Source: Candidatus Omnitrophica bacterium UBA6249 (GTDB taxonomy: Bacteria; Omnitrophota; Gorgyraeia; Gygaellales; Profunditerraquicolaceae). From it: 64,000 nt of DNA. The notes under the pieces are model-generated. The model was not told where the DNA came from and ran no database searches. It worked only from the letters and a program-made list of their open reading frames with translations. Of this stretch, positions 6,941 to 64,000 are shown one piece after another. Positions within the stretch are counted from its first letter, which is position 1. Each line of letters starts with the position of its first letter. Position numbers and translations under genes: made by a program. Location: NCBI GenBank assembly GCA_002441305.1, contig DJVT01000009.1, forward strand, positions 178,766-242,765, in the 5' to 3' direction.

Positions 6941-7987
6941 ATGGAGATTCGCGATCTACTTTTGATGTGCATCGAGAAAAGCGCTTCGGACCTGCATATA
7001 ACCGAAAAAGAGCCTCCTATTTTGCGTATTGACGGCAGGCTGGTGCGCACGGAGTTGGAGAAGCTCGACAGGCAGGAGATGAAGAAGATGCTTTACGGCA
7101 TACTCTCCAACGCCCAAAAGGAGATATTTGAGCGGGAGCTGGAGCTTGATTTTTCCCTTGCCCTGCCGGACCTGGACCGTTTCCGGGTCAATATACATAC
7201 CCAGAAAGGCAATGTGGAGGCCGCTTTCCGCAGAATCCCCCTGGAGATCCCCAGCGTCGAGAAACTGGGGTTACCGCAGATTATCACGGATTTGGCAAGC
7301 AAGTCCAACGGCCTTGTTCTTGTTACCGGGCCTACGGGAATGGGCAAAACCACTACCCTGGCGGCAATGATAAACTATATAAACAGCGAAAAGGAAAGCC
7401 TGATTACCTGCATAGAAGACCCGATAGAATTCATTTATTCCAACAAGAAGAGCATAATTAAACAGCGCGAGGTATATTCGGATACGCATTCTTTTGCCCA
7501 GGCCCTGCGCCATGCCCTGCGCCAGGATCCGAATGTTATTGTGGTAGGGGAGATGCGCGATCTGGAAACCATTTCTACCGCTTTGACTGCGGCGGAGACC
7601 GGGCATCTTGTTTTGGCGACCCTGCATACTCCTGACGCTCCCCAAACGGTGGCCAGGATTATAGATGTATTCCCCCCGCACCAGCAGCAGCAGGTCAAGA
7701 TGCAGCTTTCCGACTGCCTCCAGGGTGTGGTTTCCCAGCTTCTCCTGCCGCATTCATCGGGAAAGGGGAGGGTGCTTTGCACCGAAGTCATGGTGGCTAC
7801 TCCCGGTATCCGCAATTTAATCCGGGAACAGGAGATAGAACAGATACCTACCTTGATGCAGACGGGTTCGCAGCATGGCATGCATACTATGGACAAGTTC
7901 CTTAAGGAGTTGCATCAGAAAGGGCTGATTGCTTTGGATATCGCCATGGCCAAAGCCAAGAACAGGGAAGAATTTAAACAACTATGA
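6941..7987 (+). CDS. pilT: type IV pilus retraction ATPase PilT
   Basis: 348 aa. Walker A GPTGMGKTTT, Walker B DPNVIVVGEMRD, His box TGHLVLATLHT, and PilT signature GIRNLIREQEIEQIPTLMQTG. Confidence 0.9.
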   Translation: MEIRDLLLMCIEKSASDLHITEKEPPILRIDGRLVRTELEKLDRQEMKKMLYGILSNAQKEIFERELELDFSLALPDLDRFRVNIHTQKGNVEAAFRRIPLEIPSVEKLGLPQIITDLASKSNGLVLVTGPTGMGKTTTLAAMINYINSEKESLITCIEDPIEFIYSNKKSIIKQREVYSDTHSFAQALRHALRQDPNVIVVGEMRDLETISTALTAAETGHLVLATLHTPDAPQTVARIIDVFPPHQQQQVKMQLSDCLQGVVSQLLLPHSSGKGRVLCTEVMVATPGIRNLIREQEIEQIPTLMQTGSQHGMHTMDKFLKELHQKGLIALDIAMAKAKNREEFKQL

Positions 7988-8484
7988 TTATAAAAGGAAA
8001 GAGCGTAAGGCTGGGGGACAATATAAATACCGATTTTATCATTTCGGGCAGATATAAATTCGCGATTACGGATTTATCCGAGCTGGCAAAACATATCATG
8101 GAGGATGTCGACCCGGATTTCCCGAAGAAGATAATCCCGGGCCGTTCGATTATTGTCGCCGGGAACAACTTCGGGATGGGCTCAAGCCGCGAACAGGCCC
8201 CCCTGGTAATAAAAGAAGCCGGGGTTGCAGCTGTCCTATCCCCGCAGTTCGCGCGGATATTTTTCCGCAACAGCTTTAATATAGGGCTTCCTTTGATTGA
8301 AACGGATACTTCGCGCATCGCAGAATCCGACGAGCTGCAGATCGATTTGGATAAAGGGCTCGTGGTGAACCTGACAAAGGGGATAGAATCGAAAATCAAA
8401 CCGCTGCCTAAATTCATGCAGGAGCTTTTAAAAGAATGCGGGATAGTCAACTATTACAAAAAATACGGGGAGTTAAAAATATAA
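7984..8484 (+). CDS. leuD: aconitase-family dehydratase small subunit (LeuD/HacB type)
   Basis: 166 aa with GDNINTDFIISGRY and GNNFGMGSSREQAP. ATGA overlap with the pilT stop. Confidence 0.85.
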   Translation: MIIKGKSVRLGDNINTDFIISGRYKFAITDLSELAKHIMEDVDPDFPKKIIPGRSIIVAGNNFGMGSSREQAPLVIKEAGVAAVLSPQFARIFFRNSFNIGLPLIETDTSRIAESDELQIDLDKGLVVNLTKGIESKIKPLPKFMQELLKECGIVNYYKKYGELKI

Positions 8485-9572
8485 TGTCGCATAAAATAAC
8501 TTTGATTCCGGGTGATGGCATAGGAGAAGAGGTATCCCGGGCCGCAGTCAGGTGTATCGAGGCTACCGGAGTGGATATAGAATGGGAAGAGGCGCTTGCC
8601 GGCAGCGATGCGCTGGAGAAAACCGGGAACATCCTTCCCAAAGAGGCGCTTGATTCCATAAGGAGGAACAAGGTTGCGCTTAAGGGGCCGATTACCACGC
8701 CCGTGGGGACGGGTTTTCGTTCGGTAAACGTTGCCATAAGGCAAGAGCTTGAGCTTTTTGCCTGCGTGCGCCCGGCGAAAAGCTATCCGGGGATAAAGAG
8801 CAGGTTCAGCGATATCGACCTGGTGATTATCAGGGAAAACAGCGAGGACCTGTATATGGGCGTTGAGTTTGAAGAGGGCAAAGAAAGCACGAAGGATTTA
8901 ATTGCCAGGATAAGCCGGGATGCAGGTAAGAATATCCGTACGGATTCGGGAATAACCATTAAACCGATATCAAAATACGCCAGCGAAAGGATAGCCAGGT
9001 TCGCTTTTGAGTACGCATTGAAGAATAACCGTAAAAAGGTTACCTGTGTGCATAAGGCAAATATCATGAAATTCACGGACGGGCTTTTCCTTAAGGTAGC
9101 CAGGGACCTATCCCGTGAGTATGCGGGGAGGGTGGTTTTCGAGGATGCAATAGTGGATAATATGTCTATGCAGCTGGTGACCAAGCCGAATAAATACGAC
9201 GTGCTCCTGCTCCCGAATCTTTACGGGGACATTGTTTCGGACCTCTGTGCCGGGTTAATCGGCGGGCTGGGGGTGGCTCCCGGGGCGAATATAGGCGAGG
9301 AGAGCGCGGTATTTGAGGCAGTGCATGGCTCGGCTCCCAAATACAAAGGGCAAAATAAAGTTAACCCTACGGCGATGATCCTTTCCGGGGTATTGATGTT
9401 GCGCCATATCAACGAAAACAACGCCGCCGACCTTCTGGAGAATGCGGTAAAGGAAGTGGTTTTGGAAGGGAAGTCATTGACTTACGATTTGAAAGCGGAC
9501 CCTCTCGACCCTGCAGCGGTAGGGACCAGCGGGATGGCGGATGCGGTAATCGCCAAAATCAAAAACCGTTAA
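8484..9572 (+). CDS. icd: NAD(P)-dependent isocitrate dehydrogenase family (IDH3-like; homoisocitrate DH not excluded)
   Basis: ITLIPGDGIGEEV, RSVNVAIRQELELFACVRP, IRENSEDLY and VHKANIMKFTDGLF resemble NAD-IDH. The TAATG junction with leuD fixes the start at 8484. Confidence 0.8.
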   Translation: MSHKITLIPGDGIGEEVSRAAVRCIEATGVDIEWEEALAGSDALEKTGNILPKEALDSIRRNKVALKGPITTPVGTGFRSVNVAIRQELELFACVRPAKSYPGIKSRFSDIDLVIIRENSEDLYMGVEFEEGKESTKDLIARISRDAGKNIRTDSGITIKPISKYASERIARFAFEYALKNNRKKVTCVHKANIMKFTDGLFLKVARDLSREYAGRVVFEDAIVDNMSMQLVTKPNKYDVLLLPNLYGDIVSDLCAGLIGGLGVAPGANIGEESAVFEAVHGSAPKYKGQNKVNPTAMILSGVLMLRHINENNAADLLENAVKEVVLEGKSLTYDLKADPLDPAAVGTSGMADAVIAKIKNR

Positions 9573-9590
9573 TTATCGGATGAGGATAAT

Positions 9591-10511
9591 ATGAAGATAA
9601 GCGTTATCGGTGCGGGCAATGTGGGTAGCTTATCCGCAATGCGCATAGCCGGAGAAGGTCTGGGAGACGTCGTGCTTGTGGATATAGCCGGCGGTCTGGC
9701 GAACGGCAAGGCGATGGATTTGGAGGATGCCCGCCCGTTATTGAAATATAACTATAGCATTAGGGGAAGCGCAGATATCCGGCAGATAGCAGATTCGGAT
9801 ATTATCGTAGTTACCGCAGGGATGGCGCGCAAGCCGGGGATGAGCAGGGAAGAGCTTTTATCCAAGAACGCGATGATCCTGAAAGACATATGTTCGAACA
9901 TAAAGGCCTTGGCGAAGAATGCGATCGTGATCATGGTCACAAACCCTCTGGATATTATGACCCTTTATGCTTTAAGGGTTACGTCTTTCGATCCGGGCAG
10001 GCTGTTTGGAATGGGGATCAGCCTGGACGCAGCGCGTTTTGCCAACCTGATAGCCAAAGAGCTCGGGGTATTGTGTACGGATGTAGAGGCCTCGGTAATC
10101 GGGGCGCATGGAGAAGGAATGATGCCTCTGGTAGAATTTACCAAGGTCAAGGGCGTGCCGCTTGATGAGTTCATGGATGAAGGCAAGTCAGAGCTGCTGG
10201 TCAAGCGCACCATAGGCAGGGGGGCGGAGATAGTTTCTAACCTGGGTACGGGGAGCGCTTTTTTCGCCCCTTCGGCCGCAGTTGCCGCGATAGTCAGAAC
10301 GATAGCCAAAGACGAGAAGCGTGTTATCGGTTTATGTAGTTACCTGAACGGGGAGTACGGCATAAAAGATTGCTGCATAGGGGTTCCCTGCCGGCTGGGG
10401 AAAGACGGTATAGAAAAGATCGTGGAATTGGAAATTTCCCAGGAAGAAAAGTCCAGGCTGAAAGAATCGGCTGCCTCGATAGCGGAGGCGGCGGCAACTT
10501 TGCCGGTTTAA
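9591..10511 (+). CDS. mdh: malate dehydrogenase (LDH-like family)
   Basis: MKISVIGAGNVG Rossmann fold. GMARKPGMSREELL carries the Arg typical of MDH rather than the Gln typical of LDH. Confidence 0.9.
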   Translation: MKISVIGAGNVGSLSAMRIAGEGLGDVVLVDIAGGLANGKAMDLEDARPLLKYNYSIRGSADIRQIADSDIIVVTAGMARKPGMSREELLSKNAMILKDICSNIKALAKNAIVIMVTNPLDIMTLYALRVTSFDPGRLFGMGISLDAARFANLIAKELGVLCTDVEASVIGAHGEGMMPLVEFTKVKGVPLDEFMDEGKSELLVKRTIGRGAEIVSNLGTGSAFFAPSAAVAAIVRTIAKDEKRVIGLCSYLNGEYGIKDCCIGVPCRLGKDGIEKIVELEISQEEKSRLKESAASIAEAAATLPV

Positions 10512-10521
10512 GTTTACGCAT

Positions 10522-11805
10522 ATGTACGATTTAGTCGTTATCGGAGCGGGCTGGGCCGGTTTTAATGCCGCCCTGAAGGCAAAGAAATCAGGATTGAAAG
10601 TCTGCCTTGTTGAACGCGGAGAGATCGGCGGAACATGCCTTAACCGTGGCTGCATACCTACCAAATCATTCATCGCTTCGGCTAAAATTTATTCCCTCAT
10701 AAAAAAGTCGGCTGTTTTTGGCATAGATCCGGGTTCTCCTTTGATTGATTTCAACAGGCTGAAAGAGAGAAAAGAAGGCCTTGTGCGCATTTTGGCTGAA
10801 GGCATGCGCAGCAGGCTCTCCGGAGTGGACTTTGTCCGTGCGGAAGCGAGCATCATTTCAGAAGGCAGACTGGAGATCGGCGGCAGTAGGGTGGACACAA
10901 AGTTTACGCTTATCGCCACGGGAAGCGTTCCTGCCGGGCTGGAAGCCTTGAAGTTCGACGGAGAAAGAGTAATTTCGAGTAACGAAGCGCTGGACCTGGA
11001 TTTTTTGCCCCGCTCCCTCCTGATTATCGGAGGGGGGGTCATCGGATGCGAATTTGCCGGGTTCTTTTCGGCTTTAGGCTCGGATGTCACTATCGCAGAA
11101 AAACTGCCGTCGCTCCTGCCCGGGGAAGACAGGGACATATCGAGGAAGATGGAAACGTTCTTCAAGAAAAAAGGGGTTAAGGTAATTACCGGTACAGACC
11201 CTCTGTCTTCCGACCTTGGCGTTTATGAAAAAATAGTGGTTTGCGTAGGGCGCAGACCGGATACGGCGGGGCTCGGCCTGGATAAGCTCGGAATCAAATT
11301 TTCACGCGGCATAGAAGTGGACGATTTTCTCATGACCGGTCTGAATAACGTGTATGCAGCCGGGGATTGTACGGCAAAACGCATGCTGGCGCATTATGCA
11401 GCTTATCAGGGTGAAACCGCGGTGGAGAATATGCTTTCGGGGAACAAGCGCAGGGCCGCGGCACAGGCGGTCCCGTCCTGCGTTTTTACAGATCCGGAGA
11501 TCGCCAGCGTAGGATTGAGCGAGGAAGCGGCTTCAGTCTCCGGCATACAGGTAAAAGTGCATAAATTCGATTTCCGGGCTTCCGCTATGGCCCGGGTGAG
11601 CGAAGAGGCGGAAGGTTTTATCAAGATTGTTTCCAGGAATGATAGCGGGGAGATACTCGGAGGATGCATAATAGGGCCGCGGGCTACGGAAATGATAGCC
11701 GTATTGACCGTGGCCATATGCGCGGGTATGGATGTTGAACGGATGAGGCAGGTGATTTTTGCGCATCCTACTATTTCCGAATCCCTGCACGAGGCTTTAT
11801 CTTAA
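10522..11805 (+). CDS. lpdA: dihydrolipoyl dehydrogenase-like flavoprotein disulfide reductase
   Basis: GAGWAGFNAA FAD site, redox disulfide GGTCLNRGCIPTK, and C-terminal HAHPTISESLHEA His-Glu motif. At 427 aa it is shorter than typical Lpd. Confidence 0.85.
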   Translation: MYDLVVIGAGWAGFNAALKAKKSGLKVCLVERGEIGGTCLNRGCIPTKSFIASAKIYSLIKKSAVFGIDPGSPLIDFNRLKERKEGLVRILAEGMRSRLSGVDFVRAEASIISEGRLEIGGSRVDTKFTLIATGSVPAGLEALKFDGERVISSNEALDLDFLPRSLLIIGGGVIGCEFAGFFSALGSDVTIAEKLPSLLPGEDRDISRKMETFFKKKGVKVITGTDPLSSDLGVYEKIVVCVGRRPDTAGLGLDKLGIKFSRGIEVDDFLMTGLNNVYAAGDCTAKRMLAHYAAYQGETAVENMLSGNKRRAAAQAVPSCVFTDPEIASVGLSEEAASVSGIQVKVHKFDFRASAMARVSEEAEGFIKIVSRNDSGEILGGCIIGPRATEMIAVLTVAICAGMDVERMRQVIFAHPTISESLHEALS

Positions 11806-11830
11806 GAAAACGGAGTTTCCGGGAGGGAAG

Positions 11831-12067
11831 ATGATAAAGGTAGTTTTGCCTGAATTGGGAGAAGGCATAGTTAAGGCAACCGTTTCTTACTGGTTCGTGA
11901 AAAAAGGGGAAAAGGCGCGCGAGAAGGAGGATCTTGTCGAGCTTGCCACGGATAAAGCTACGTTTAACCTACCGAGCCCGTGCACGGGTATGATCTCGGA
12001 GATAGTTTGCAATGAAGGGGATAGCGCAGGGATTGGAGACGTTCTGGCATTGATTGAAGAAGAATAG
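11831..12067 (+). CDS. free-standing lipoyl-attachment domain protein (78 aa)
   Basis: MIKVVLPELGEGIVKATV...LVELATDKATFNLPSP...GDVLALIEEE is an E2-type lipoyl domain with the DKA lysine. There is no catalytic E2 domain. ATG 11831 follows a GGGAGGG SD. Confidence 0.8.
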   Translation: MIKVVLPELGEGIVKATVSYWFVKKGEKAREKEDLVELATDKATFNLPSPCTGMISEIVCNEGDSAGIGDVLALIEEE

Positions 12068-12106
12068 AAGAGTATTTTGTTTTTCCCTTTTCCGCCGCCC
12101 ACCGCC

Positions 12107-12135
12107 TTGACAAGGGCAGTTTTTTTTAGTATAAA
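12107..12135 (+). promoter_or_regulatory. sigma-70-type promoter candidate (TTGACA-N17-TATAAA)
   Basis: TTGACA 12107-12112, a 17-nt spacer, then TATAAA 12130-12135. It lies about 30 nt upstream of the ATG at 12166 in a 98-nt intergenic gap. Confidence 0.5.
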
Positions 12136-12165
12136 TATTACATATATATACCTAAAAATTGAAAA

Positions 12166-13332
12166 ATGGCTATCGATTATAAAAAAGAATTAGAGAACGC
12201 GGCCAGGAACATGATTTTTGTGCATGATCCAGACCTTCTGATCAAGATGATGGTCCGGATGATGGTTAACAGGGCTAAAATTACCCACGCCAGTTTCTTT
12301 CTTCATGATAAGGCTAAAGAAAGCTATGCCCTTACTGTATCCAAAGGGCACTTGAAGAGCAAGATTCCATTGAGCCTTGTGCGTATCGATAAGGACGATG
12401 TTTTGATCCGTTTCTTCAAGTCCGGGATGAGCACTTCGCTGTTCGGCAGAGAAGCTCTAGTATTGAACGAGGCCAAGGCGGAGCTCAAGAATCCCAGCCT
12501 GAAAAAAGAGACCAAGCAAAAGCTTATCCATGTATTGTATCAGATGGAGCTTTTGGAGTCAGTGGCCTGCATACCGAGCTATTTCCGCGATGAATTGCTT
12601 GGCATACTGCTTTTGGGCAGGAAGCAAAATGGCAGGAAATTCCTGGATGAAGAGTTAGACTTTTTTATAGCCCTTAATTCGAATGTGTCCATGGCGGTGA
12701 GGAACGCGCAGCTTTTCAGGCAACTGGGGCTCGAACTTGAACGCAAGCACCAGTTGTTTGTGCGTACGACAATCGCGCTAGCTGCGGCTATCGAGGCCAA
12801 AGACCACTATACGCATGGCCATACTACCAGGGTTACCAGTTTGAGCCTGGAGATAGCCAGGGGCATTGCCAGGAAAAATAAACGGGATTTCGATTCCGGC
12901 TTCATGGAAAACCTGCATATTGCCAGCCTGTTACACGATATCGGCAAGATCGGGGTTCCGGAATACATCCTGAATAAAAGGGACGCTTTGACTGTCGGGG
13001 AACGCAACCGCATAAAGGAACATCCGATGATCGGGGTAAATATACTAAAGCCGATCAAGGAGCTCGAAGGTTCGATGATGGGGATTAAATGCCATCACGA
13101 ACGTTTTGACGGCAAGGGGTATCCCGATGGGTTAAAAGGGGAACAGATTCCCCTGATTGCCTCCATAATCTCCGTGGCGGATTCATTTGACGCCATGAAT
13201 TCTGACCGGCCCTACCGGCCGGCATTGCCTAAGGAAAAAGCGGTAAACGAAATCAGGAGCTTGAGCGGGCGCCAATTCTGCCCGCACATAGCGGATACTT
13301 TCCTGGAAATCTGCAAGGAAGGCAGAGTCTAA
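12166..13332 (+). CDS. GAF domain / HD-GYP domain protein (c-di-GMP phosphodiesterase family)
   Basis: 388 aa. The C-terminal half has HYTHGHTTRV, LLHDIGKIGVP and HHERFDGKGYPDGL. Confidence 0.85.
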   Translation: MAIDYKKELENAARNMIFVHDPDLLIKMMVRMMVNRAKITHASFFLHDKAKESYALTVSKGHLKSKIPLSLVRIDKDDVLIRFFKSGMSTSLFGREALVLNEAKAELKNPSLKKETKQKLIHVLYQMELLESVACIPSYFRDELLGILLLGRKQNGRKFLDEELDFFIALNSNVSMAVRNAQLFRQLGLELERKHQLFVRTTIALAAAIEAKDHYTHGHTTRVTSLSLEIARGIARKNKRDFDSGFMENLHIASLLHDIGKIGVPEYILNKRDALTVGERNRIKEHPMIGVNILKPIKELEGSMMGIKCHHERFDGKGYPDGLKGEQIPLIASIISVADSFDAMNSDRPYRPALPKEKAVNEIRSLSGRQFCPHIADTFLEICKEGRV

Positions 13333-61288: not shown

Positions 61289-62305
61289 ATGAATAGAATC
61301 GGTCCAATAATCCTTCTCTCAATCATTCTTTTATCGAAAGGCGCCATGGCTGCCCAGGATAAAATAAAAATATTCGATGTCAAATCCGGCAAGACCATTG
61401 AAGTCGACAAGATAACCAAAAGCGATGCCGAATGGCAGAAGATCCTTACCCCGGAGCAGTTCCGAGTAATGCGGCTGAAAGGCACTGAAACCCCCTTTAA
61501 AGAAACATGCCCTATTCCTCCTGAAGGAGAAAACGGATTTTACCAGTGCGCAGGATGCGCTACGGATTTATTTAAATACAGTGCTAAATTCGAATCGGGG
61601 ACTGGTTGGCCAAGTTTTTGGGAACCGGTATCGGAATTAAATATAATATTGAAAGAAGATAATAGTTTTGGCATGAAAAGGACGGAGGTCCTATGCGCGC
61701 GCTGCGGCGCGCACCTGGGGCATGTTTTTAATGACGGCCCCCAGCCGGCAGGGAAGCGTTATTGTATTAATGCCGTAGCTTTGAAGTTGGCTGAGTTGCC
61801 GGTTTTGTCCGGGACCAGGCCTGTTTTAGAGAAAGCCGCCTTCGCGGCAGGCTGTTTTTGGGGAGTTGAAGCGGCATTTCAGCAGGCAAAAGGAGTTGTT
61901 TCTGCCGTATCCGGGTATATGGGCGGCAAGACTAAAAATCCCACATATGAAGAAGTCTGCACAGGCGAAACCGGGCACGCCGAAACAGTCCTGGTTGAGT
62001 ACGACCCCGGCAAGGTTTCCTATGAACAGCTTTTGAGCCTTTTTTTCGCCATGCACGATCCGACTACGCTTGACCGGCAGGGCCCGGATTCGGGTTCGCA
62101 GTACCGTTCGGCAATTTTTTATTACACCCCTGAGCAGGGGAGGGCTGCGGAGAATTTCAAGGAAAAGCTCCGCGATTCGCATAAATTCAGGGATCCGGTT
62201 GTGACCGAGATTTCACCTGCGGGAGAATTTTATAAAGCGGAAGATTACCACCAGAAATACTTCGAAAAACGAGGCGTAAAGCCTACCTGCCGCATCCCCT
62301 TATAA
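61289..62305 (+). CDS. msrAB: secreted bifunctional methionine sulfoxide reductase MsrB-MsrA
   Basis: Signal-like N-terminus. MsrB half (CAGC...GTGWPSF...CARCGAHLGHVF) and MsrA half (AAGCFWGVE...DPTTLDRQGPD.GSQYRS). Confidence 0.9.
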   Translation: MNRIGPIILLSIILLSKGAMAAQDKIKIFDVKSGKTIEVDKITKSDAEWQKILTPEQFRVMRLKGTETPFKETCPIPPEGENGFYQCAGCATDLFKYSAKFESGTGWPSFWEPVSELNIILKEDNSFGMKRTEVLCARCGAHLGHVFNDGPQPAGKRYCINAVALKLAELPVLSGTRPVLEKAAFAAGCFWGVEAAFQQAKGVVSAVSGYMGGKTKNPTYEEVCTGETGHAETVLVEYDPGKVSYEQLLSLFFAMHDPTTLDRQGPDSGSQYRSAIFYYTPEQGRAAENFKEKLRDSHKFRDPVVTEISPAGEFYKAEDYHQKYFEKRGVKPTCRIPL

Positions 62306-62390
62306 AAGACCACAGATCGAAAATTTCATAAAAACCCGGGGCTGACAGCCTGGGGGTATGGCAATATCCTGCGGTAAATATATTTTTTTC

Positions 62391-62420
62391 TTGACAATAC
62401 ACACAAATGTGTGGTATATC
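62391..62420 (+). promoter_or_regulatory. lexA promoter with an embedded inverted repeat (candidate LexA operator)
   Basis: TTGACA 62391-62396, then extended -10 TGgTATATC 62412-62420, with an A/T-rich stretch upstream. The inverted repeat CACACA-AA-TGTGTG 62400-62413 fills the spacer. Confidence 0.55.
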
Positions 62421-62427
62421 TGTAGGC

Positions 62428-63030
62428 ATGGAAATGAAGCCGTATTTGACGCCAAAGCAGGAGAAAGTGCTTAATTTTATCCGTAAACGGATAGGGGAGA
62501 GGCTCCCTCCTACTATCCGCGAGATAGGGGAGGAGCTGGGGTTTAAATCTACGGGCACTGTACGCGACTATCTTAAGGTCTTAATACAGAAAGGGCTGGT
62601 GAAGAGGATGAATAATAAGTCCAGGGCAATAGAATTGACTGAACGCGCGTCTTTCAAGATTCCGATAATCGGCACGATTACGGCCGGCAAGCCGAATCTG
62701 GCTTATGAAGAAATCCAGGGGTATGTCGATGCCGATGATCTATTCCTGGGCCGTTTGGGTTTTGATGATGTTTTCGCTTTAAGGGTCAAAGGCGACAGTA
62801 TGATCGATGCGGGCATACTTGAAGGCGATGTGGCGGTGATCAAGAAACGCCCCAATGCCGACAATAATGATATAGTTGCCGCGTTATTGGATAATAATGA
62901 AGTTACTTTAAAGAGGCTGAGAAGCCGCTCCGGCAAGTTCCACCTGGAAGCAGCTAACCCCAATTACGCCCCGATTTTCGAAGAATTCAAGGTCATAGGC
63001 AAGCTTATTACGGTAATAAGGAAATACTGA
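62428..63030 (+). CDS. lexA: LexA repressor
   Basis: wHTH (LTPKQEKVLNFIRKRIGERLPPTIREIG), cleavage site TAGKP, and Ser/Lys dyad (KGDSM, TLKRL). Start is at ATG 62428 or 62434. The ORF-track start at 62407 lies inside the promoter. Confidence 0.9.
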   Translation: MEMKPYLTPKQEKVLNFIRKRIGERLPPTIREIGEELGFKSTGTVRDYLKVLIQKGLVKRMNNKSRAIELTERASFKIPIIGTITAGKPNLAYEEIQGYVDADDLFLGRLGFDDVFALRVKGDSMIDAGILEGDVAVIKKRPNADNNDIVAALLDNNEVTLKRLRSRSGKFHLEAANPNYAPIFEEFKVIGKLITVIRKY

Positions 63031-63051: not shown

Positions 63052-63357
63052 ATGAATCAGAATAGTTTTAGCCCCAAAGCGCGCTGGGACAGGTTCGAAC
63101 CGGATGGCGGCTTTGATCCGGATATCCTGAATGAGCGCATAGACGTCCTGGCCTTGTTCAGGGGCGCCAGGATATTTCCCAGGAGCTTTAAATGGCATGA
63201 CAAACAATACCGTATAGAAACCATCACCTATAACTGGCAGGAACGCATAGGCCAGGCTCTGGTCAGCTACTTTTCTGTGGTCTGTGCCGGGCAGATCTAC
63301 CAGATATCTTTCAATAATTCCACGTTTCGCTGGCAGCTCGACAAGTTAATTCAGTAA
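63052..63357 (+). CDS. hypothetical 101-aa protein between lexA and dinB
   Basis: ORF with short gaps on both sides (21 nt and 15 nt). No family recognised. Trp/Tyr-rich (FKWHDKQYRIETITYNWQERIG...FRWQLDKL). Confidence 0.6.
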   Translation: MNQNSFSPKARWDRFEPDGGFDPDILNERIDVLALFRGARIFPRSFKWHDKQYRIETITYNWQERIGQALVSYFSVVCAGQIYQISFNNSTFRWQLDKLIQ

Positions 63358-63372
63358 TCTTAATACCATATT

Positions 63373-64000
63373 ATGATTTTACATATAGATATGGACGCTT
63401 TTTTCGCTTCGATCGAAGAAGCGGTAAACCCCAGGCTTAAAGGCAGGCCGTTGATCATCGGGGCGCGCGCAAGCAGGATGAATACCGTAGTTTGCGCCGC
63501 CAATTATCCGGCCAAGGCCCTGGGGATCCACTCAGGAATGCCTACCAGGAGAGCTTATAGTATTTACTCCAAGCTGGAATTTTTGCCTGCCGATCAGGCT
63601 AAATATATCTGGACTTCAGGGCAGATCCTTGAGCTTCTCAAGGGGTATAATTTACCTTTAAACTACAGTTCAATCGATGAATTCCAGATGGACCTCTCCG
63701 GCTATCCCGGCCAAAACCCGGTAAGTTTGAGTAAAGAAATCAGGGCGCAGATATATGCAAACTTTAACATTACCGCTTCAATCGGCATAGCCAAAAACTG
63801 GCTTTTGGCTAAACTGGCATCCAAATTAAATAAGCCGGATGGAGTGGCTTTAATCGATGATTCCAATTTCGAGCAAGCCTTGCGCAAGGCCAGCCTGGAT
63901 AAGCTCTCCGGTATGGGAGGAAATTACGGCCGGGAATTGACCGCCCGGGGCATAAAAACATGCTGGGATTTATACCTGAACTTACCGGGATTTTTTGATG
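63373..64000 (+). CDS. dinB: DNA polymerase IV (Y-family), N-terminal part; continues beyond window
   Basis: MILHIDMDAFFASIEEAVNPRLKGRPLIIG...SIDEFQMDL...TASIGIAKNWLLAKLAS is typical DinB. Confidence 0.9.
   Translation, partial: MILHIDMDAFFASIEEAVNPRLKGRPLIIGARASRMNTVVCAANYPAKALGIHSGMPTRRAYSIYSKLEFLPADQAKYIWTSGQILELLKGYNLPLNYSSIDEFQMDLSGYPGQNPVSLSKEIRAQIYANFNITASIGIAKNWLLAKLASKLNKPDGVALIDDSNFEQALRKASLDKLSGMGGNYGRELTARGIKTCWDLYLNLPGFFD

Follow-up and report, generated by a model that had tools for sequence, protein, structure and literature searches.

A CCACACA-WW-TGTGTGG palindrome as the proposed LexA operator of a lexA operon in Omnitrophota

Repeated change of a binding motif in the course of bacterial evolution is exemplified above all by the transcription factor LexA. 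About 17 LexA motifs had been reported by 2021 (PMC8565304). The described boxes include CTG(TA)5CAG in Escherichia coli, CGAAC-N4-GTTCG in Bacillus subtilis, AGTACWNWTGTACT in Cyanobacteria, GTTC-N7-GTTC in Alphaproteobacteria, TTAC-N3-GTAA in Bdellovibrio, GGTT-N10-AACC in Geobacter, and both GGA-N5-TCC and CTAA-N5-TTAG in Bacteroidetes (PMC3091678, PMC8565304, PMC7739468), and the motif of Balneolaeota is the direct repeat TTACACATATTTTWTACATA (PMC7739468). The region studied here is a stretch of 64,000 nucleotides from Candidatus Omnitrophica bacterium UBA6249 (positions 178,766 to 242,765 of contig DJVT01000009.1, assembly GCA_002441305.1), which we call the window and to which all coordinates given without a locus name refer. 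It contains a lexA gene, the promoter of which carries a 16-bp palindrome (62399-62414). This palindrome is clearly related to the boxes of the Gram-positive and cyanobacterial type, xxAC-N4-GTxx, but has new arms, and it is in all likelihood the operator by which LexA represses its own operon, the message of which would be leaderless.

The palindrome fills the spacer between the -35 and the -10 hexamers (Table 1). Its inner part is a 6-2-6 inverted repeat, CACACAAATGTGTG, at 62400-62413. The upstream lexA sequences of relatives read cTTGACAnnCCACACAwwTGTGTGGTAnnnn, and the true unit is therefore 7-2-7, a palindrome of 16 bp with the lineage consensus CCACACA-WW-TGTGTGG, from which the window box departs by one outer mismatch, A62399 where the consensus has its leftmost C. 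The extended -10, TGgTATATC at 62412-62420, is of the TRTG type, its TGTG (62410-62413) being supplied by the inner part of the operator's right arm, and the TA that opens the hexamer directly abuts the box in all 33 box promoters that were tabulated. TTGAC is also present in most of the box promoters from metagenomes. The window has a single exact copy of the 6-2-6 palindrome and 100 dinucleotide-preserving shuffles had none, and so a chance match is not expected. No further copy of the 6-2-6 repeat was found in the window with up to 2 mismatches allowed, nor any further box site with up to 3 mismatches of the 14 specified bases, and the E. coli-type sequence CTGT-N8-ACAG is absent between 62330 and 62430.

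The conservation of this arrangement was followed in loci that were chosen by their LexA protein. A LexA-protein scan of species-representative genomes gave 10 loci from Omnitrophota (L001-L010) and 70 loci from other phyla (L011-L080), and three more Omnitrophota loci (L201-L203) were fetched via LexA proteins on long contigs, irrespective of the motif. The closest LexA homologues are 83-100% identical to the window protein and their sources label them Omnitrophica or Omnitrophota. Among the 14 Omnitrophota loci thus picked by LexA similarity alone, the lexA operon is headed by the box in 13 (the window, L002-L010 and L201-L203), exactly in 11 of them and with one mismatch in 2. It lies just upstream of lexA in L002, L003, L004, L005, L007, L008 and L009, and a perfect box stands in the same place in all three of L201-L203. 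In the alignment of the relatives TTGAC, CACACA and GTGTGGTA are invariant at a mean column identity of only 43%, and the two central bases of the box are variable (AA, TT, AT or AG). Invariant arms around a variable centre are the pattern that fits a dimeric repressor reading the arms. Since the right arm shares bases with a plausible extended -10 of the TRTG type, the promoter alone could explain part of its conservation, and the repeat might then bind no protein and be either a feature of promoter structure, the TGTG of the extended -10 being mirrored by chance, or a hairpin without a role. We give this very little credence because the left arm, CCACACA, is invariant though it has no role in the promoter, because the palindrome is not a match expected by chance, and because the same 16-mer is shifted with respect to TTGACA in the polymerase promoters of the G+C-rich loci L108, L132, L146 and L149, where it overlaps a CACATT -10 and the start site. 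A hairpin or terminator was rejected as well, the DNA fold of 62391-62434 being no better than that of shuffles (z = -0.93) and no T-run following the repeat. The palindrome region has no match in Rfam.

The box is not tied to lexA as the first gene. In L006 the promoter and the box are 2.4 kb upstream of lexA, at the head of an operon (7609-13004) with the order rhuM-like - recQ - lexA - KilA-N gene - orf102 - dinB, so that the box-controlled operon is enlarged by a RhuM-family gene and recQ before lexA and by a KilA-N-domain gene after it. L010, whose LexA is only 53% identical to that of the window, has a one-mismatch box heading a Bro-N-domain gene which is followed by lexA, and the box likewise precedes a Bro-N-domain gene and then lexA in L179, a metagenome locus. 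We read the Bro-N-domain gene of both loci as dinD-like; recQ and dinD-like genes thus sit inside box-headed operons. Another metagenome locus, L094 (491-1138), has an NYN-domain gene, a predicted nuclease, as the first gene of its box-headed lexA operon, and in L105 (248-1249) a DUF6625 gene is first. The box tracks the operon head rather than lexA itself, as L006, L010, L179 and L094 illustrate.

The box goes together with a particular recognition helix. This helix in the window LexA is S41-TGTVRDYL-49, and the pattern STG[ST]xRD[YH]L is shared by every LexA that was found with the box. Among the 70 loci from other phyla neither was found, the helix in none of the 70 LexA proteins and the box in none of the 70 loci. 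E. coli LexA makes its base contacts through N41, A42, E44 and E45, all of which are in the recognition helix (PMC3091678), and in the alignment these positions are occupied in the window LexA by G43, T44, R46 and D47. The operator CCACACA-WW-TGTGTGG would accordingly be read by a LexA subclass with the helix STG[ST]xRD[YH]L, and this subclass appears to occur in Omnitrophota and in at least 2 other uncultured lineages of higher G+C. One of its members is the LexA of the metagenome locus L121, all 17 closest homologues of which keep STG[ST]VR; its remoter homologues, some of them labelled Myxococcota or Methylomirabilota, are without it.

Public metagenome contigs were scanned for CCACACANNTGTGTGG and exact copies were found in at least 120 loci (L081-L200) which, having been selected by the motif itself, show its context and not its frequency. 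Most of the matches listed are plainly chance or hairpins in unrelated DNA. Among them, at least 17 box loci also contain a lexA homologue, with a LexA 35-93% identical to that of the window and a locus G+C of 0.35-0.69, and in most of these 17 the box is just upstream of lexA or its operon. A random 16-mer is estimated to precede lexA about once per tens of thousands of occurrences, if one short lexA promoter region per genome of a few megabases is assumed, and with so low an estimate the enrichment of the box before lexA is not in doubt. At least 5 loci (L108, L132, L146, L149 and L195) have the box directly before a Y-family polymerase gene with no lexA in view, and in L143 it precedes a lone gene (10145-10429) for a 95-residue homologue of orf101, the gene that follows lexA in the window, with lexA 6 kb away. 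In L121 (7306-9349, G+C 0.67) it heads a 61-residue cysteine-rich open reading frame (CxxC...CxxC), lexA and recA, all in one direction; no other locus among the matches listed shows a link between recA and the box. When an approximate E. coli RecA sequence was used as a tblastn query against the window and the fetched loci, matches were found only in loci outside Omnitrophota, including L121. One locus reached by protein search and not by the motif, L204, also has its lexA (G+C 0.59) preceded by cTTGCCAtaCCACACATCTGTGTGGTATGGCattctcATG.

These loci bear on the question of whether the palindrome could be the operator of some other repressor, for example one of the winged-helix BlaI/MecI/CopY type, lexA being regulated by that factor. 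The operators of this family contain TACA-N2-TGTA, the inner core of the box, ACA-NN-TGT, resembles the core of the cop/bla box, and the assignment of the site to LexA and not to another repressor rests on comparison. Such a repressor is nevertheless improbable. Across lineages it is lexA that is found again and again with the box. Most of the box-headed loci examined carry it, the exceptions being stand-alone Y-family polymerase genes, and the genes at the operon heads vary widely. The box is also accompanied by one particular LexA recognition helix, it is otherwise found at classic SOS genes (Y-family polymerase, recA and recQ), and the tabulated genes of the neighbouring loci include none of the BlaI/CopY type.

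Two of these loci have unusual lexA genes. In L204 (10001-10622) lexA is called as two genes, one for 106 residues with the DNA-binding domain (P0241) and one for 82 residues with the S24 domain. A LexA that consists of the DNA-binding domain only was considered for P0241 and rejected, because the three reading frames of L204 jointly give a full-length LexA, and the split is probably due to assembly frameshift errors. In L168 (reverse strand, box at about 1457) there are only the promoter and the first 24 codons of lexA (MKPYAELTPKQEKVLKFIRERVGE...), which are followed by stop codons and, beyond these, by an open reading frame of 437 residues that by eye is a candidate DNA cytosine methyltransferase. 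This lexA looks as if it had been disrupted by an insertion.

The position of the start codon relative to the promoter suggests that the lexA message has no leader. There are in-frame ATG codons at 62428 and 62434, of which ATG 62428 is the start kept in the relatives (MEEK, MEKK, MENK and the like) and ATG 62434 is peculiar to the window. Since 7 nucleotides separate the -10 hexamer from ATG 62428, A62428 of the start codon is at the place expected for the first transcribed base. In 20 of the 33 tabulated box promoters the start codon follows the -10 hexamer by 5-8 nucleotides, whatever the first gene is (lexA, an NYN-domain gene, an orf101 homologue or dinB), and this leaves no room for a ribosome-binding site. 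It is ATG in 19 of the 20 and GTG in one (L098). The other 13 promoters have long leaders, and AGGAG- or GGAGG-type sites are visible in L005, L006, L089, L121 and L193. In the polymerase promoters of L108, L132, L146 and L149 the ATG is about 8 nucleotides after the CACATT -10. Strong AGGAG sites are frequent at other genes of the window, and therefore the organism does not generally dispense with them. That the lexA mRNA is leaderless or nearly so is thus a well-supported, if circumstantial, reading.

The promoter could be right and the message still not leaderless if translation started at ATG 62407, or if an upstream promoter were used and the box, then part of the leader, served as a roadblock. 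The codon ATG 62407 is inside the palindrome and in frame with lexA (extension 62407-62427), which is the reason that many homologues are annotated in databases with 207 and not 200 residues, 7 too many. A LexA of 207 residues from this codon was rejected. An NTG within the box is an automatic by-product of the arm sequence, in L003 it is 20 nucleotides from the conserved ATG and out of frame, and the extension of 7 residues would put the start codon between the -35 and the -10. Because the frame is lost in L003 the 207-residue annotation looks like a systematic mis-call of the start codon. As for an upstream promoter, a simple promoter scan gave a second, weak match, CTGACA-17-TATCCT at 62342-62370, but it lies in sequence that is not conserved among the relatives. 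It also speaks against a leader that the spacing is 5-8 nucleotides in 20 promoters with different first genes, and that several of the leadered ones show a clear ribosome-binding site. We consider a leadered lexA message unlikely.

The preliminary description of this DNA had given coordinates for the -35, the repeat, the extended -10 and both ATG codons, all of which agree with the sequence. It had further suggested that the repeat is the autoregulatory LexA box of the lineage and that the lexA mRNA is near-leaderless. The first suggestion is now strongly supported by footprinting of the relatives, by recurrence of the box at SOS genes and by the distinctive helix, and the second gains circumstantial support from the ATG spacing and from the AGGAG sites in those leadered variants that were inspected.

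Besides the selection of the metagenome loci by the motif itself, several observations weigh against the proposal as a whole. The hexamer TATATC is without the consensus T at position 6 of a -10, and the simple promoter scan missed the TTGACA/TATATC promoter because it demands a T at that last position. The match at 62342-62370 that the same scan did report leaves room for a leadered transcript. No second box site was found in the window or in about 115 kb more of Omnitrophota flanks, so that within this phylum the box is seen only at the heads of lexA operons; the sites seen before other DNA-damage genes come from other lineages. The lexA of L143 has no box in the 400 nucleotides upstream that were scanned. 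Finally, L001, whose LexA is 92% identical to that of the window, has no box in its 165 nucleotides of upstream sequence. This locus (CAYIFW010000086.1) is labelled 'uncultured Planctomycetales' and the sequence TTGTCAAG upstream of its lexA resembles an inverted -35 region; perhaps the contig was wrongly binned, or its promoter was rearranged.

The open reading frame at 62428 has what a complete, bona fide LexA is expected to have, namely a DNA-binding and a peptidase domain, an Ala-Gly cleavage site and a catalytic Ser/Lys pair. LexA_DNA_bind (Pfam PF01726) is matched over residues 7-67 with E = 6e-18 and Peptidase_S24 (PF00717) with E = 2e-26. The DNA-binding domain aligns with that of E. 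coli LexA (1lea), the Thermotoga LexA structures having been aligned also, and the cleavage site A86-G87, S124 (GDSM) and K162 (TLKRL) align with A84-G85, S119 and K156 of E. coli. With such a protein we infer that the locus would work as follows. LexA would bind the palindrome and repress its own operon, lexA - orf101 - Y-family polymerase, from a putative sigma-70-type promoter (TTGACA, 18 nucleotides, TATATC). Because the operator fills the spacer and its right arm supplies the TGTG of the extended -10, a bound LexA dimer would exclude RNA polymerase. Upon DNA damage, RecA-stimulated self-cleavage of LexA at A86-G87 by the catalytic pair S124 and K162 would free the promoter, transcription would start at or within a base or two of ATG 62428, and the resulting leaderless message would be translated without a Shine-Dalgarno site. 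As a mechanism this would be ordinary SOS logic, and what the sequence supports as new is the operator and the probable leaderless transcript.

Table 1. Features of the lexA promoter and operon in the window
Feature	Position	Strand	Remarks
A/T-rich tract ending in a T-run	62376-62389	+	just upstream of the -35; T-run nearly invariant among aligned relatives
-35 hexamer TTGACA	62391-62396	+	read directly; TTGAC the same in all 10 promoters of the alignment
Proposed LexA operator (SOS box) ACACACAAATGTGTGG	62399-62414		unique in the window, conserved, recurs elsewhere
Extended -10: TGTG, g, hexamer TATATC	62410-62413 (TGTG); 62415-62420 (hexamer)	+	spacer to the -35 of 18 nucleotides
Predicted transcription start	62427-62428	+	7-8 nucleotides past the -10; from standard sigma-70 geometry
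lexA, 200 residues	62428-63030	+	winged helix-turn-helix DNA-binding domain and S24 peptidase domain
orf101	63052-63357	+	follows lexA and precedes the polymerase gene; DUF6504 E = 6e-4, short of the curated Pfam cut-off
Y-family (DinB/Pol IV-like) DNA polymerase gene	63373-64000	+	Pfam IMS 1.5e-39; cut by the window end

The A/T-rich tract in front of the -35 may serve as an UP-like element, as the end of the upstream gene's terminator, or as both; a G+C-rich hairpin can be read ahead of the T-run in several relatives. Farther upstream, at 61289-62305, is an msrB-msrA fusion gene (SelR and PMSR) with a hydrophobic N-terminus. This fusion is also near lexA in L201-L203 and hence the local synteny is conserved. 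Downstream, lexA and the Y-family polymerase gene are always separated by an open reading frame of about 100 residues, in the window as in L006 (11571-11879), L201 (10615-10923) and L203 (10753-11064). Members of this orf101 family have matches to DUF6504 that fall short of the Pfam threshold (E = 6e-4 and 2e-3). The family may represent an uncharacterised SOS gene, and orf101 itself is probably co-transcribed as one. The polymerase of L006, L201 and L203 has 367-378 residues with IMS and IMS_C domains and is encoded by the last gene of the operon, after which convergent genes follow. An imuA-imuB-dnaE2 cassette was considered for the downstream genes and was rejected because no dnaE2 follows the polymerase gene in these three loci.

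Taken together, and with rather less confidence than we place in the operator itself, we think it probable that these loci represent an undescribed LexA specificity class, in which the helix STG[ST]xRD[YH]L is paired with CCACACA-WW-TGTGTGG, in Omnitrophota and in at least 2 lineages of very different G+C. Included in this proposal are an operator that doubles as an extended -10, a leaderless transcript, and a minimal SOS regulon of lexA, a Pol IV-like polymerase and a DUF6504-like protein of about 100 residues, sometimes with recA, recQ or a dinD-like gene. It adds a further LexA motif along with its matching recognition-helix signature, and the two could allow SOS regulons to be reconstructed from metagenome-assembled genomes of Omnitrophota and other uncultured lineages. 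For models of the drift of LexA specificity it supplies one more point, placed between boxes of the Gram-positive, cyanobacterial and Fibrobacter types. Other points of interest are the apparently leaderless SOS expression, the double use of one operator arm and the candidate SOS component of 100 residues.

The preliminary description had also stated that the repeat matches no LexA box known. This stands in so far as no like motif was found: CCACACA-N2-TGTGTGG is not among the motifs of the LexA papers that were compared, and its prior description is unlikely, the Verrucomicrobia motif (PMC4951493) and the 2007 motif review lying outside the comparison, and no relevant description was found in the literature on LexA in Omnitrophica or Omnitrophota. 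It does not stand in so far as geometry and the ACA..TGT core are shared with the Gram-positive and cyanobacterial boxes. All sites read ACAC-N4-GTGT, with tetranucleotide arms, an AC...GT core and a spacing of 4 nucleotides that never varies, and the arms are ACAC/GTGT at every site, never GAAC/GTTC or GTAC/GTAC.

Like the new box, the Gram-positive LexA (DinR) box, or Cheo box, CGAAC-N4-GTTCG (PMC3091678), has a core of 14 bp with tetranucleotide arms and a 4-nucleotide gap. The inner ACA..TGT is common to both (CGAACAnnTGTTCG and CACACAwwTGTGTG), as are the repressor architecture and a position of the box over lexA and translesion-polymerase promoters. The Gram-positive arms, however, are GAAC/GTTC, whereas the Omnitrophota box has ACAC/GTGT plus an outer C/G pair which makes it a 16-mer, and the loci from Firmicutes and Actinobacteria have a helix of the SSSTVHxHL type in place of the STGTVRDYL of the window. 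The cyanobacterial box, RGTACNNNDGTWCB or AGTACWNWTGTACT (PMC3091678), is similar in its length, its spacing, its A/T-rich centre and its AC-N4-GT core. It differs by having GTAC arms where ACAC is found here, and by belonging to a different LexA clade. The LexA box of Fibrobacter succinogenes is reportedly TGCNC-N4-GTGCA(T) (Mazon et al.). If so, its core, CAC-N4-GTG, is identical and Fibrobacter is the source of the nearest described sequence, with outer TG/CA instead of the CA/TG and outer C/G of the new box.

The Balneolaeota motif is, like the present one, a recent lineage-specific LexA motif obtained by the same comparative approach, and its half-site contains ACACA, but it is a direct repeat and not a palindrome and has another spacing (PMC7739468). 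With CTGT-N8-ACAG of E. coli (PMC3091678, PMC8565304) the new system has in common a self-cleaving repressor and a 16-bp palindrome over its own promoter and those of repair and mutagenesis genes. The two palindromes are unrelated in sequence and the base-contacting residues are different, N41, A42, E44 and E45 in the one and G43, T44, R46 and D47 in the other. The lexA of E. coli has a leader with a ribosome-binding site. The leaderless mRNAs of Actinobacteria and Deinococcus have the start codon, preferably AUG, at the 5' end and no Shine-Dalgarno sequence. Compared with these, the leaderless message proposed here from promoter geometry would go with a single promoter-operator module, strong AGGAG sites being frequent at other genes of the organism.

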